Positions 36,415 through 39,923 are shown, counted from the first letter of the stretch. The stretch: 64,000 nt of DNA from a virus (IMGVR_UViG_3300021387_001709:125812-189811), one strand, 5' to 3'. The notes: generated by a model not told the origin, from the letters alone. Numbers and translations: made by a program.

Positions 36415-36921
36415 ATGACAACAGTAACGGTAACGTCCAAAGAAGCAAACAACATACTTCGAAAACTGTACGAAGAAAAAAGTAATTTCCGCAATAAGGA
36501 AATAGACGGAATGGAATTCCATGCGGCTGTCGGCGAAAAGCTTGATGATGTTCGCCCGGATTACAACTTTGAAGAGACTAAAGAATGTATTGAAATTATT
36601 GACAACCAGATTCTTGCTATCAAACATGCGATTAACTTGTTCAACAGTTCCACGATTGTCGGAGATACCGGGCTAACAATTGACCAGGTGTTGATTAAAC
36701 TCGGTATGTTGACAGAGCGAAAACAAAAATTCGCCCGTATGAGAAGTATGCAAGAGAAACGCAGAGGTCAAATTACGGGAAATGTAATTGACTATATCTA
36801 TGCTAACTTCGACATTGAAGCCGCCGACATGGCATATGAAGAAGCCGACACTGAGTTAAAGCATCTCCAGACGGCACTTGATCTGGTGAATAATACAGTA
36901 ACTTTCGAAATTAGTTATTAA
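36415..36921 (+). CDS. DIP1984-like coiled-coil protein, copy 1
   Basis: T..EA...L; IKHAINLFNSSTIV...LTIDQ; LD..N...TFEISY; similar in layout to 38190..38822. Confidence 0.7.
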   Translation: MTTVTVTSKEANNILRKLYEEKSNFRNKEIDGMEFHAAVGEKLDDVRPDYNFEETKECIEIIDNQILAIKHAINLFNSSTIVGDTGLTIDQVLIKLGMLTERKQKFARMRSMQEKRRGQITGNVIDYIYANFDIEAADMAYEEADTELKHLQTALDLVNNTVTFEISY

Positions 36922-36935
36922 AGGAAATTAAAATT

Positions 36936-37137
36936 TTCCGTCGTCCGGTAATGTTCAAATGATATTTTAACAATAAATCTGTGGTTGTACATGGTTATGT
37001 TTTATATGCGTTATTAATTTGAATTATTTGTTATATGTATTAGTCCACGGTGCTAAAGTATTCAAGTTCTTTAGGGATGAACATCATTACAGTAAATTCT
37101 GGTTCTACTGGATGAAAAAACTTCTTTGGCGACGGAA
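36936..37137 (+). ncRNA. structured ncRNA directly downstream of coiled-coil gene 1
   Basis: Closing stem TTCCGTCGTC/GGCGACGGAA; ATGTTCA/TGAACAT; CTGTGG/CCACGG enclosing TTAT repeats; CTAAAG/CTTTAG hairpin. Confidence 0.6.
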
Positions 37138-37239
37138 GTACGGTTATAAGTTGCCACTTAAAGGAGACCAAATTATTTAACATAGTGAAACTCAACTTGT
37201 GTGGGCGATCCACATAGCCGTGATAGGCGGTAAAATTAT

Positions 37240-37329
37240 GGGGGTATGGCGAAATTGGCTAGACGCTGCGGGCTTAAAACCCGTTGGATATATTGTAATT
37301 CCATGAGGATTCGAATTCCTCTACCCCTA
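37240..37329 (+). tRNA. tRNA-Leu(UAA)
   Basis: Cloverleaf; anticodon arm GCGGG-CTTAAAA-CCCGT; long variable arm; T-loop TTCGAAT. Confidence 0.9.
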
Positions 37330-37331
37330 CG

Positions 37332-37597
37332 GAAGGTAAAGGCAGCCGGTTAAATAAACCGGTGAGTAGGTTGAAACGATAGCCAAGACCGTAAGGTAAG
37401 GTCAACGACTATTTCTCGTAAGAGAAAGTAGGGAGTAAGCTATTGACTCTCGAAATGCTTAGGTCTAAACAGGTAATGCTGTAGAATAAGATATAGTCTG
37501 TACTTATTGGAAACAATAAGAAGTTCATTTGAGAACTACATGGGACTAGCGACCCCATGTGAACATTTTTTTACATATCTACTCAGCCGATACCTTC
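37332..37597 (+). ncRNA. group I intron 3' catalytic half (Q, R, S, P7-P9.2) inside a closing helix
   Basis: Q-like AAACGATAGCCAAG; R GGTCAACGACTA (37400-37411); S AAGATATAGTC (37488-37498); P7 GACTA/TAGTC; P7.1, P7.2, P8, P9, P9.1 and P9.2 hairpins; flanks GAAGGTA/TACCTTC and TGAGTAG/CTACTCA pair. Confidence 0.65.
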
Positions 37598-37727
37598 TCG
37601 ATGCACCGACTAATAATTACTTAAACAGCAACAACTAGACTATCGGCAGACTGGCTTTTACACTGTAGTGCATTATGGTGACCCTGTTGCTGGGGTTGAA
37701 ATAATAAGGCGAATCTGTACGGACGGT

Positions 37728-37840
37728 ATTCAATCAAAACTCCTTGACGAGCAATGAGGAGCGGATGTGGTGTGGCAACGCAGACCAACTTGTAGTGTCT
37801 CGGCGTTATGTAATTGTAAATCCGGAGTTTTTGATTGAAT
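37728..37840 (+). ncRNA. structured RNA with a long closing stem
   Basis: ATTCAATCAAAACTCC/GGAGTTTTTGATTGAAT (16 bp, 1 bulge) with internal hairpins. Confidence 0.5.
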
Positions 37841-37846
37841 CTGTTT

Positions 37847-37920
37847 GGAACATTAGCTCAGTTGGTCAGAGCCACCGGCTCATAACCGGTCGGTCCCAGG
37901 TTCGAGTCCTGGATGTTCCA
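37847..37920 (+). tRNA. tRNA-Ile2/Met (CAU)
   Basis: Cloverleaf; ACCGG-CTCATAA-CCGGT; resembles the Firmicute Ile2 type. Confidence 0.9.
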
Positions 37921-37938
37921 CTGTAGGAGAACCTACAT

Positions 37939-38051
37939 TATGTGGTGGCGGAATAGGTAAACGCTTTGGAAGATAAGATGGCTACTAACGTAGGTGGCGA
38001 AATTAGTTCGGCAAAAGTCATCATGTGAGGTGCAAATCCTCCCCCACATAA
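37939..38051 (+). ncRNA. tRNA-like RNA (Leu-type D/T arms, no anticodon stem, extended variable arm)
   Basis: TATGTGG/CCACATA acceptor; GCG-GAATAGGTAAA-CGC D arm; GAGG-TGCAAAT-CCTC T arm; GATGGCT/AGTCATC long arm. Confidence 0.6.
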
Positions 38052-38053
38052 TT

Positions 38054-38140
38054 GACTCTATAGAATAATGGAAGTCGATTTAAGCTAGTAGTTCACTCCA
38101 TGGTTAGGGAGAGGTTCCGGTTCAATTCCGGATAGAGTCG
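38054..38140 (+). ncRNA. tRNA-like RNA with expanded D loop and abnormal anticodon loop
   Basis: GACTCTA/TAGAGTC acceptor; TCCGG-TTCAATT-CCGGA T arm; CTCC-ATGGTTAG-GGAG with an 8-nt loop. Confidence 0.6.
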
Positions 38141-38189
38141 TTTCCGATTAGAACTTATAATTTATTTATTAAACAAAGGAGAATTAACT

Positions 38190-38822
38190 ATGAGAAAAAT
38201 CACAGTAACAGAGGCACTGAAAGAACTGAAACTTTATGATGACAAAATTTATAAGGCAATTGGTCGTGCCGAATTTGTCGGAGCAGCCAAGAAAAATTCG
38301 GATTTAATCGGTCACAAAAAGAAATCTATCTACGAGAATGATGCGCAGTCCTCGTTCGACTCTATCACGGCTATGATTGATAACCGAGACACCCTCAAGA
38401 GCGCAATTGTTAACTCTAACGCGATCACCAAGGTAGAAATTGGCGGAATAACGATGACTGTCGCCGCTGCTATAGAAAAGAAGAGTTCGATTGAGTATGA
38501 TAAGAGATTTTTATGTGCAATGAAAGAGCAATTTGATTCGGCTGTTTCCACTGTTGCCCGTGAGAACGCAAAAGTGGACGCTCAGTGCGACAGATTGATC
38601 GAAACACAGCTTTCCGGCGATAATAAGACAAAAATTGACAAAGTTGACATAGAAGCCTTTACGGCGCCGTATAGAAAGCAAAGGGAATTTGCCATTGTCG
38701 ATCCGCTCGACATTGAAAAGAAGATTGCCGAGTTGGAGTCCAGGATTGATGCGTTTGAAGCTGAGGTTGATACGAAGCTAAACGTGTCGAATGCACTGAC
38801 TACAATAGAAATTGATTTTTAA
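38190..38822 (+). CDS. DIP1984-like coiled-coil protein, copy 2
   Basis: TVTEALKELK; LKSAIVNSNAITKV.IGG.TMTVAAAI; VDTKLNVSNALTTIEIDF. Confidence 0.75.
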   Translation: MRKITVTEALKELKLYDDKIYKAIGRAEFVGAAKKNSDLIGHKKKSIYENDAQSSFDSITAMIDNRDTLKSAIVNSNAITKVEIGGITMTVAAAIEKKSSIEYDKRFLCAMKEQFDSAVSTVARENAKVDAQCDRLIETQLSGDNKTKIDKVDIEAFTAPYRKQREFAIVDPLDIEKKIAELESRIDAFEAEVDTKLNVSNALTTIEIDF

Positions 38823-38835
38823 TTATTAAATAATC

Positions 38836-39202
38836 TATTGCGGCTATATCGAAATTCGCAAACTTAAGCCCCTCGCCGGGAGGGTTATCCCGGCTCCATT
38901 TAAAACATCATAATATCGAGATGAAGCGATATGATATTATACAGTGTTTTCTCATATGAGCAGCATCAATATTGCAATGCTGACGGGATGAGAAATCAAA
39001 TGTAAATCGGCTTAAGCGCTCAGTTATCATTGATTATTGTTTAGTGGATGCCACAGTGGATGTGGCGATTTAGAACTCAGCATTCTTTTTATGTAGGGCT
39101 TAGGGAACTTAATTATTAATTTTCGATAAAATCCTCGACTAAAGTTTATGGGTATCGCTTATTCGACCCTGCGAATTGTACGAGGCTGATATAGCCGCAA
39201 TA
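38836..39202 (+). ncRNA. large pseudoknotted ncRNA directly downstream of coiled-coil gene 2
   Basis: Perfect 15-bp closing stem TATTGCGGCTATATC/GATATAGCCGCAATA; AATTCGCA/TGCGAATT; AAACTT/AAGTTT; TAAGCCC/GGGCTTA; CCTCG/CGAGG; several hairpins. Confidence 0.75.
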
Positions 39203-39206
39203 ATAA

Positions 39207-39299
39207 GGGAACGTAGTTTAATAAGGTGCCAAAAAATAAATCCTTATGGTAAAACACTTTTGCGCAAAAGAGATGCAAGTTCAAATCTTGCCGATCCCA
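39207..39299 (+). ncRNA. tRNA-like RNA with a hairpin inserted in the D loop and a 4-nt anticodon loop
   Basis: GGGAACG/CGATCCC acceptor; TAAGG...CCTTA insert; CTTTT-GCGC-AAAAG; GCAAG-TTCAAAT-CTTGC T arm. Confidence 0.6.
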
Positions 39300-39437: not shown

Positions 39438-39440
39438 TCA

Positions 39441-39628
39441 TGGTTGTCCAGGAATCCAGCTTATCTTGATTGTGGATAAAGGTAAGCGAAAGCAGATTGG
39501 CAAAAAGACCGCATCCACAAGTGGTTGTATGCTCGCGGTAGAATAACATGCGAATGACATGGCTACCAAAAACTGGTGACACTCGGGAAAGGCTGAGAAG
39601 TACGTACTTGTAACTCGGTAATTGACCA
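39441..39628 (+). ncRNA. putative structured RNA
   Basis: TGGTTG/TGACCA ends; TTGTGGAT/ATCCACAA; GCTTATC/GGTAAGC; ACCGC/GCGGT. Confidence 0.45.
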
Positions 39629-39776
39629 CAGTAACTTTTTATCTAGTGTAACAATTTACTTGTTGCAAACCCCGACGACTCGGAAAGACGAGCACTGCAA
39701 TATTACTTAACAGAAACAGAAATGAAATAACTTAAAGTGAGGTTTTGTGGCGAGGGTATTTTCTCGCCACATGCAA

Positions 39777-39867
39777 TCTTAAGCAAGGTGCCATAAGACG
39801 GGTTTTTGGCTTAATCAGCCCCGCACGATGCGCAAATGAATTTCGTGGAACACGGCCTTGTTTGAGA
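39777..39867 (+). ncRNA. putative multi-branch structured RNA
   Basis: 12-bp closing stem TCTTAAGCAAGG/CCTTGTTTGAGA; CGGG/CCCG and CACGA/TCGTG branches. Confidence 0.45.
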
Positions 39868-39923
39868 GTTTATTTTTGGTCAAGAATTAAAATTTAGGCG
39901 GTGATTAACTCACTGCCCATTAC

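Follow-up and report, generated by a model that had tools for sequence, protein, structure and literature searches.

Two genes for helical proteins in a phage are each followed by a dedicated structured RNA

INTRODUCTION

Two protein genes, P1 and P2, located in a 189.8-kb phage record from IMG/VR that is rated ~98% complete (IMGVR_UViG_3300021387_001709), each precede a stretch that lacks long open reading frames (ORFs) and was flagged as a large structured RNA. These RNAs are hereafter called RNA1 and RNA2, respectively. The flag was raised by an initial annotation of bases 125812-189811 of the record, a 64-kb stretch of DNA hereafter called the window, from whose first base all positions are counted. 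This locus therefore poses the question of whether the two RNAs exist as conserved entities, whether each belongs to the protein encoded in front of it, and what protein and RNA might form together.

We find that both RNAs are real, conserved and covarying, that they reside on the + strand, and that each is linked to its own protein family. From these observations we infer physical binding of each protein to its RNA, the use of one repeat unit per protein site, and a role during infection. The initial annotation had proposed a dedicated ribonucleoprotein whose subunits polymerise on a repeat tract of the RNA, and this interpretation is partly supported by the findings presented below. New here are a cognate test of two RNA classes against two protein families, a correction of the RNA1 structure, and the presence of both orthogonal pairs in one phage.

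RESULTS

Each protein family is accompanied by its own RNA class

The P1 and P2 genes are present as annotated and are the only long ORFs in their respective stretches (Table 1). The RNAs had been placed about 14 nucleotides (nt) past the stop codons, and this spacing holds: TTCCGTCGTC of RNA1 begins at 36936, which is 14 nt past the P1 stop, and TATTGCGGCTATATC of RNA2 begins at 38836, which is 13 nt past the P2 stop. The two gene-RNA pairs sit 1.3 kb apart.

A P2 homologue is present in 745 phage records, and a protein search returned 22 homologues of P1. Behind the P2 homologue is a gap without annotation, 365-500 nt or more in length, in eight annotated phages of very different lineages, namely Vibrio phage Pontus, a T5-like coliphage, the rV5-like phage 4MG, Bacillus phages Bc431v3 and vB_BauM_KLEB27-3, Lactococcus phage AM9, Pseudomonas phage phiPsa397 and Clostridium phage D-1873. 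Seven of these eight gaps exhibit the anatomy of RNA2 when compared side by side, and the KLEB27-3 RNA resides further downstream. The gene and its gap recur across T5-like, rV5-like, Thalassavirus, Bastille-like, Lactococcus 949-like, Otagovirus and Clostridium phages with differing neighbours, and in most loci the RNA starts within tens of nucleotides of the gene stop. Phages of Proteobacteria and Firmicutes and a Cloacimonadota assembly are among the carriers.

The RNA class to which RNA2 belongs (class 2) was defined by R1, a covariance model of 70 positions in the 3' domain, and by alignment A4, for which 80 further loci were taken from IMG/VR and 41 full-length RNAs were aligned. The class of RNA1 (class 1) was defined by R2, a model of 69 positions in the 3' part, and by alignments A5 and A8, for which 17 viral and 80 metagenome P1 loci were gathered. 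R1 scores 66.3 bits on RNA2, its sole match in the window and in the whole phage, and the R2 match in RNA1 is the only one in the window. R1 matches were found in 85 of the 89 sources bearing a P2 homologue, and R2 matches in 85 of the 98 bearing a P1 homologue, where several misses come from loci that stop shortly past the gene. All of these matches are downstream of the gene and on its strand (orientation fixed in 170 of 170 model matches). R1 also matches seven of eight P2 loci from bacterial assemblies.

Exchanging the models yielded no matches, either for R2 in 86 P2 loci (337 kb) or for R1 in 86 P1 loci (244 kb). Therefore, each protein family travels with its own RNA class, and the pairing of two RNA classes with two protein families is strictly cognate. 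The claim of a dedicated structured RNA for each gene is thus borne out by two covarying classes that never occur in each other's place. The check proposed with that claim, a covarying structure downstream of homologues, gave a positive result for both class 2 (41 sequences) and class 1 (29 sequences).

Table 1. Positions of the features of the two gene-RNA pairs in the window
Feature	Position	Strand	Description
P1 gene	36415..36921	+	168-aa helical protein, DIP1984/DUF6847-like superfamily
RNA1, class-1 RNA, ~220 nt	36936..37155	+	R2 match 37097-37163, 50.4 bits
RNA1 elements	36936..37155	+	5' TTCCGT; U-rich GUU/UUAU tract; GAAAAAACTT 37114-37123; terminal hairpin
RNA1 terminal hairpin GGCGAC/GTTGCC	37128-37133 / 37150-37155	+	loop GGAAGTACGGTTATAA
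P2 gene	38190..38822	+	210-aa helical protein, phrog_1491
RNA2, class-2 RNA, 367 nt	38836..39202	+	closed by 15-bp helix P1
Helix P1, perfect 15 bp	38836-38850 / 39188-39202	+	98.7% paired in 41 sequences, 10/10 pairs covary
Helix P2, AATTCGCA/TGCGAATT	38853-38860 / 39170-39177	+	72% paired, 8/8 pairs with double changes
5' strands of helices P2 and P3	38853..38865	+	helix P3 = AACTT, partner 39142-39146
5' H-type pseudoknot	38867..38894	+	S1 AGCCC/GGGTT, S2 GCCGGGA/TCCCGGC
Heptad tract, five U-Y-A units at an exact 7-nt spacing	39013..39047	+	lag-7 z 4.0
Class-2 3' domain	39119..39188	+	TTCGATAAAATCC, P5 arm, hairpin P6, GGCTG
Pseudoknot arm P5, CCTCG/CGAGG	39133-39137 / 39181-39185	+	crosses AATTCGCA/TGCGAATT and AAACTT/AAGTTT

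RNA2 belongs to a doubly pseudoknotted RNA class

RNA2 is a member of a covarying, doubly pseudoknotted RNA class. It carries every class-2 element, including the closing helix (helix P1; the helices of RNA2 are not to be confused with the proteins), a joiner, helices P2 and P3, the 5' pseudoknot, the U-Y-A heptads, TCGATAAAATCC, arm P5 and GGCTG. Its joiner reads CGAAATT, compared with the CGAAAAC-like form of the class. The perfect 15-base-pair (bp) stem, AATTCGCA/TGCGAATT, AAACTT/AAGTTT and the crossing CCTCG/CGAGG pseudoknot described by the initial annotation are all present in the sequence. Both AATTCGCA/TGCGAATT and AAACTT/AAGTTT are nested within the stem, and the stem, AATTCGCA/TGCGAATT and the crossing pair covary across 41 relatives.

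Helix P1, arm P5 and hairpin P6 are all recovered by RNAalifold from alignment A4. When the pseudoknotted helices P2 and P3 are included, 85.7% of 1405 alignment cells pair, compared with 64.5% for shuffled alignments and 34-44% when the partners are slid, and double-change cells number 318 versus the 98 expected. Arm P5 is paired in 100% of the 41 sequences, with three inner positions that covary freely through four pair types. Helix P3 is 68% paired in the same sequences, with a mostly conserved sequence and a noisy alignment register. The fold of RNA2 itself has a z-score of -5.1, and none of 100 shuffled sequences folds as well.

The 5' H-type pseudoknot was evaluated by a per-sequence search of 49 relatives, which yielded a median score of 11 compared with 8.5 for shuffled sequences. 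The 95th percentile of the shuffled scores is exceeded by 61% of these relatives, in which the stem sequences vary by lineage. An additional helix that had been annotated, TAAGCCC/GGGCTTA, can indeed be formed in the window sequence, but it was rejected as a feature of the family (46% paired in relatives versus 43% when shuffled). This helix competes with the 5' pseudoknot, where the CCC run of the relatives pairs instead. A hammerhead-like core (GAAA and CUG flanking helix P1), a T-loop reading of TTCGATA and a layout resembling that of transfer-messenger RNA (tmRNA) were each considered by eye and set aside, as they came with neither the defining contiguous motifs nor Rfam support.

G·U pairs are frequent in the class-2 helices, and other non-standard pairs are rare. 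For this reason the + strand is the RNA strand, and the pattern is that of an RNA rather than of a DNA element. Short tandem units in an ORF-free stretch could also be expected of a DNA-level element with protein-binding repeats, be it an origin of replication, a set of iterons or a packaging site. We consider such an element extremely unlikely, given that the long-range helices and the pseudoknots persist through compensatory changes, that the many G·U pairs would be A·C on the other strand, and that the orientation relative to the gene is invariant. Moreover, a 7-bp period does not fit the helical repeat of DNA.

The structure of RNA1 extends beyond its annotated end

RNA1 had been described as closed by a terminal helix and ending at 37137. 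This 10-bp helix, TTCCGTCGTC/GGCGACGGAA (36936-36945 / 37128-37137, with one G·U pair), is present in the window sequence, but among 46 relatives only ~5 bp of it recur, whereas the terminal hairpin has a median of 8 bp. We therefore rejected the helix as a conserved closure, since it is mostly not kept and the same GGCGAC is used by the covarying hairpin, in which six of six pairs exhibit compensatory changes among 29 sequences. Because GGCGAC is shared with this hairpin, RNA1 extends to ~37155 and not to 37137.

The 5' CCGT of RNA1 can pair with ACGG in the hairpin loop, and one locus (L020) changes both sides (CCCTAT/ATAGGG). Because this pairing covaries and the 10-bp helix is not conserved, we read the closure of RNA1 as a putative pseudoknot between the 5' end and the terminal-hairpin loop, with the 3' end probably near 37155. 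All class-1 loci share, 3' of the gene, the 5' TTCCGT, GUU-type units, GAAAACTT, the covarying hairpin and the loop GAAGTACGGTTAYA. RNA1 has all of the class-1 motifs, and its tract is the least regular among them. The energy of its fold is ordinary (z -1.0). The motifs GAAAAC and AAACTT are common to class 1 and class 2, which might be related to each other by circular permutation.

Both RNA classes carry units with a 7-nt spacing

The heptad tract is the most unusual feature of the RNAs. The 7-nt period annotated in RNA2 was confirmed, with U-Y-A units at 39013, 39020, 39027, 39034 and 39041 and a lag-7 identity of 0.56 (z 4.0). In alignment A4, a U and the A two bases on are invariant, or nearly so, every 7 nt, and the family unit approximates A-A-G-U-U-Y-A. 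The longest strict 7-nt run has a family median of seven units (up to 10), compared with two in shuffled sequences, and RNAalifold leaves the class-2 tract unpaired. The tract of RNA2 is followed by an inserted hairpin (~39046-39072) and then by two to three more degenerate units. This hairpin, GCCACA...TGTGGC at 39046-39072, occurs in RNA2 and its closest relatives, and is missing from the other 39 aligned RNAs.

The TTAT units that had been noted in RNA1 are likewise present, and TTAT and GTTAT units recur in its tract (~36990-37045). Across the class-1 family, the distance from one GTT to the next is exactly 7 nt in 23.8% of cases, compared with 3.1% in shuffled sequences.

Arrays of this type are reminiscent of RNAs bound by known repeat-reading proteins. 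TRAP reads (G/U)AG repeats of the trp leader, HutP reads UAG repeats whose sites also recur every 7 nt, and CsrA binds CsrB and RsmZ. These systems resemble the one described here in having short single-stranded motifs at a fixed spacing, which suggests one protein site per unit. They differ in that they share no protein or RNA homology with it, and in that the array here is held in a closed, knotted scaffold encoded beside the protein gene.

P1 and P2 models share the DIP1984 fold

Residues 1-209 of P2 match positions 2-210 of the 211-position PHROG 1491 profile (E 5.9e-62), making P2 a full-length member of this family. P1 does not match the PHROG 1491 profile. The AF2 models of P1 and P2 are both confident, with predicted local distance difference test (pLDDT) values of 93.2 and 90.9, respectively, and for both models the top Foldseek match in the PDB is 3kdq. 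The template modelling (TM) scores are 0.57/0.62 for P1 (E 1.7e-4) and 0.43/0.58 for P2 (probability 1.00, E 1.6e-2). This chain is the sole clear match for both models, with no other chain close. Both models begin with a strand at the N-terminus, continue through long helices and a beta hairpin at the centre, and end in a strand at the C-terminus. Their invariant polar residues form a twice-repeated S-N-A-x-T / N-x-T motif located just ahead of the beta strands of the model.

The structure 3KDQ of Corynebacterium diphtheriae represents DIP1984/DUF6847 (PF20935), and the models thus assign the DIP1984 fold to both proteins. P2 is ~55 residues longer than DIP1984 and has extra helices. The family has neither a function nor an RNA partner on record. 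Matches at the sequence level are sparse: the 3kdq sequence is a weak match to the P2 profile (E 0.083), and weak matches to PF20935 occur for six of 20 aligned P1-family members (best E 2e-6) but for none among 34 homologues of P2. In a Pfam HMM search, P1 and P2 reach no family threshold and lack a PF20935 match at E <= 1, and single-protein sequence searches of NCBIfam and PDB returned nothing useful for either. The annotation of P1 and P2 as paralogues is accepted at the level of a distant superfamily relationship.

A complex prediction for a symmetric P2 homodimer reached a score of 0.75, compared with 0.00 for the best of three controls. This score is reached by 20 of 30 proteins solved as one-chain pairs and by one of 23 solved single chains, counts that provide only a rough calibration because an alignment made for the present analysis was used. 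Between homodimer runs, at least 98% of contacts are the same, and the partner chain has a pLDDT of at least 89. The model supports self-binding by P2, without showing such binding.

PHROG 1491 carries the label 'tail fiber protein', which we found to be unsupported. In annotated phages, genes for P2 homologues are located among early genes and tRNA genes and not among tail genes, and the fold is a helical bundle. For these reasons we treat the label as a propagated misannotation.

Comparison with known RNA classes and protein-RNA systems

Neither RNA corresponds to a known family. A search of Rfam 15 with the regions 36922-37239 and 38823-39206, which covered GOLLD, ROOL, tmRNA, RAGATH-19, RAGATH-27 and group I introns among other families, produced no match at the gathering score, at E <= 1 or at E <= 10. 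Thus, at three stringencies, no Rfam family explains either RNA; a characterised family accounting for both had been named as grounds for refuting the initial annotation. The equivalent gaps in seven other phages have no Rfam match at E <= 0.1. ARAGORN found tRNAs only, and there is no Rfam match to tmRNA. Among 441 T5-like records that contain the gene plus the RNA (88-100% identity), the RNA is annotated in none of the 60 listed, and neither RNA was found described in open-access papers or in bioRxiv. No description of either RNA was thus found in Rfam 15, in GenBank annotation or in this literature.

GOLLD and ROOL RNAs are also large, pseudoknotted and phage-borne, and are often located beside tRNA genes. 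RNA-only complexes are reported for both in a preprint (10.1101/2024.12.08.627333). This likeness in form and setting raises the possibility that the RNAs described here self-assemble as RNA-only multimers, with the protein as unrelated cargo of the same mobile cassette. We judge this to be very unlikely. The RNAs are smaller (220-430 nt), contain a heptad array, do not match GOLLD, ROOL or any other Rfam family, and are strictly tied to a cognate protein gene. We know of no counterpart to such linkage for GOLLD or ROOL.

RAGATH-27 (RF03100) and RAGATH-19 (RF03096) are likewise orphan candidate RNAs, but the RNAs of the window have no match to them at E <= 10, and the RNAs from seven relatives have none at a cutoff of E <= 0.1. 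Type III toxin-antitoxin systems (ToxIN) similarly couple a protein gene with a repeat-bearing, pseudoknotted RNA in phage-related DNA. ToxI units are ~36 nt long and are located upstream of an endoribonuclease toxin, whereas the units here are 7 nt long, reside inside one large RNA, and follow a gene for a helical-bundle protein. Neither P1 nor P2 matches any PADLOC profile for anti-phage defence or type III toxin-antitoxin systems at E <= 1.

A proposed ribonucleoprotein particle

Because the same pairs recur in hundreds of phages, T5 relatives included, they probably constitute new protein-RNA particles. Our preferred hypothesis, in which we have slightly more confidence than doubt, is that the window encodes two orthogonal, self-contained modules of a protein and a pseudoknotted RNA, and that each protein binds its own RNA as a ribonucleoprotein particle. 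According to this hypothesis, the gene for a small helical protein of DIP1984 fold and its dedicated RNA would be expressed on one transcript. The closed ends of the RNA would frame a single-stranded array of 7-nt units, of the U-Y-A type in class 2 and of the GUU type in class 1. A symmetric protein dimer would bind its own RNA sequence-specifically, and several dimers would align along the array, with the knotted 5' and 3' domains acting as a fixed scaffold. The product would be a discrete particle.

By analogy with TRAP and HutP, one site per unit is suggested because a dimer with two copies of the polar motif per chain would face identical 7-nt units. Where tRNAs flank the module, tRNA processing might free the RNA from the tRNA-array transcript. 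The tRNA-like gene at 39207-39299 begins 4 nt past the closing helix of RNA2, and in at least eight of 55 class-2 loci the start of a tRNA is 5-13 nt past the closing helix. Such processing would then cut the RNA free. Judging solely from this genomic setting, our guess is that the particle could act in tRNA or RNA metabolism or in host takeover.

Several observations weigh against this hypothesis. Co-inheritance demonstrates linkage and not contact. Homology between P1 and P2 is weak at the sequence level, with a nonsignificant BLASTP comparison (E 0.14) and a weak profile-profile alignment by hhalign (probability 34%, E 4e-4, 112 columns), in which the conserved central motif is nonetheless aligned. 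Searches of Pfam, NCBIfam and PDB sequences matched neither protein to an RNA-binding domain already known. The repeat tracts of the window are degenerate: RNA2 retains only the U-Y-A core in five clean units, and the RNA1 tract, in which a periodic motif had been annotated, has no significant period (lag-7 z 0.76). Both protein families are mildly acidic, with isoelectric points of 5.31 for P2 (family median 5.39) and 4.88 for P1 (family median 5.16), which is unusual for an RNA-coating protein. Finally, the class-2 RNA of KLEB27-3 (L003 5975-6352) is located 1.35 kb past the gene with three annotated ORFs between, and therefore adjacency of gene and RNA is not obligatory.

The acidity of the proteins is compatible with another account, wherein the RNAs alone are sponges or decoys that titrate a host factor reading ~7 nt of single-stranded RNA, and the protein only makes, folds or regulates the RNA. 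The target might be a cold-shock-domain or Hfq-like protein, or a nuclease that acts in defence or on anticodons. With their arrays of short units that are conserved and single-stranded, the RNAs resemble the protein-titrating RNA CsrB, and the module is common among phage tRNA arrays, which the literature links to countering host attacks on tRNA. However, the two RNA classes have different units and each occurs strictly with its own protein family, as would not be expected for a common host target. In addition, the range of phages and bacteria concerned means that the target would have to be near-universal. We regard decoys as an unlikely explanation.

The KLEB27-3 arrangement also bears on the suggestion that each structured region is a cis-acting 3' untranslated region (UTR) of the protein mRNA, serving in protection from 3' exonucleases or in autoregulation. 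The proximity of RNA and stop codon is what such a region would exhibit, and no convincing promoter or terminator was found between gene and RNA. Nevertheless, the KLEB27-3 RNA resides behind three ORFs and is followed by its own terminator-like hairpin, which argues that the RNA is more than a 3' UTR. Pseudoknots of 220-430 nt with invariant single-stranded motifs across very distant phages exceed the needs of a stabiliser, and the closing helix often abuts a tRNA, suggesting excision. A UTR role accordingly seems quite unlikely to us.

A bolder version of the particle hypothesis, offered tentatively and with more doubt than belief, is that DIP1984-fold proteins are new sequence-specific readers of single-stranded RNA. 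One dimer would occupy each 7-nt unit on a knotted scaffold RNA to yield a rod- or ring-like particle, which would serve large phages, T5 among them, at a hitherto unrecognised step of infection tied to their tRNA arrays. If true, the coexistence of two diverged pairs without cross-talk would point to a readable code relating S-N-A-x-T motifs to heptad sequence.

Genomic setting of the two modules

Both modules reside in an RNA-rich stretch at 36.9-40.0 kb of the window. Five tRNAs called by ARAGORN are located there, together with one more called by Rfam only and several gaps of 300-500 nt that lack ORFs; real protein genes number only two. The setting in a tRNA cluster was thus correctly recognized at the outset, and it is shared by many other copies of the module. 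In 36 of 55 class-2 loci a tRNA is no more than 1.5 kb away and never on the opposite strand, and flanking tRNAs are absent at T5-like and Otagovirus loci. The tRNA setting is therefore frequent and not universal. The closest relatives of P2 in bacterial assemblies are from Roseburia and other Lachnospiraceae (49-54% identity), and for this reason the phage host is probably a clostridial bacterium of the gut or rumen.

Other elements of this stretch were also noted. The tRNA-like gene next to RNA2 (39207-39299) is 93 nt in length with a long insertion, and is recognized by Rfam (41.8 bits) and not by ARAGORN. By eye, 37941-38050 is tRNA-like as well, with acceptor-like ends, a T arm (GAGGTGCAAATCCTC) and ~35 extra nucleotides, and was called by neither ARAGORN nor Rfam. 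Between RNA1 and tRNA-Leu (37160-37239) is a short element composed of GTGAAAYTCAAC, a hairpin and GTGATAGGCRG, which recurs 3' of the class-1 RNAs in loci L011 and L012, just before a tRNA.

A 516-nt ORF-free gap extends from tRNA-Leu(UAA) to tRNA-Met (37331-37846) and includes a weak match to group I introns at 37404-37520 (28.3 bits versus a gathering score of 50). At the DNA level this gap is 72-78% similar to phages of Clostridioides, Listeria and Bacillus, and in Bacillus phage LY2 the matching piece is inside an insertion that splits the portal gene. The gap may represent a free-standing group-I-like RNA. A second gap, of 484 nt between tRNA-Gly and tRNA-Gln (39440-39923), has a fold z-score of -2.0 and no Rfam match, and may hold a further structured RNA.

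Among related loci, Rfam identified a skipping-rope RNA near the Lactococcus AM9 module (L008 221-299) and, past the Clostridium D-1873 module, a drum RNA (L004 5407-5514). Therefore, other orphan phage RNAs share these tRNA-rich regions. In Salmonella phage falkor (NC_102106.1 76249-77865), the gene-plus-RNA segment exceeds that of other T5-like phages by ~540 nt, and an annotated homing endonuclease is inserted in the module.

IMPLICATIONS

If the particle hypothesis is correct, hundreds of well-studied phages carry an unannotated, abundant structured RNA together with a partner protein. Among them are relatives of T5, rV5-like phages, and phages that infect Bacillus, Lactococcus, Pseudomonas, Vibrio and Clostridium, for which GenBank currently represents the RNA as an empty gap and the protein as a tail fibre. 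The presence of two orthogonal pairs in one genome constitutes a natural experiment on specificity. T5-like phages growing on E. coli K-12 would provide a tractable system. Known large RNAs would be joined by two further classes, both pseudoknotted and bearing a rare heptad array, and the orphan DIP1984/DUF6847 fold would gain its first functional handle.

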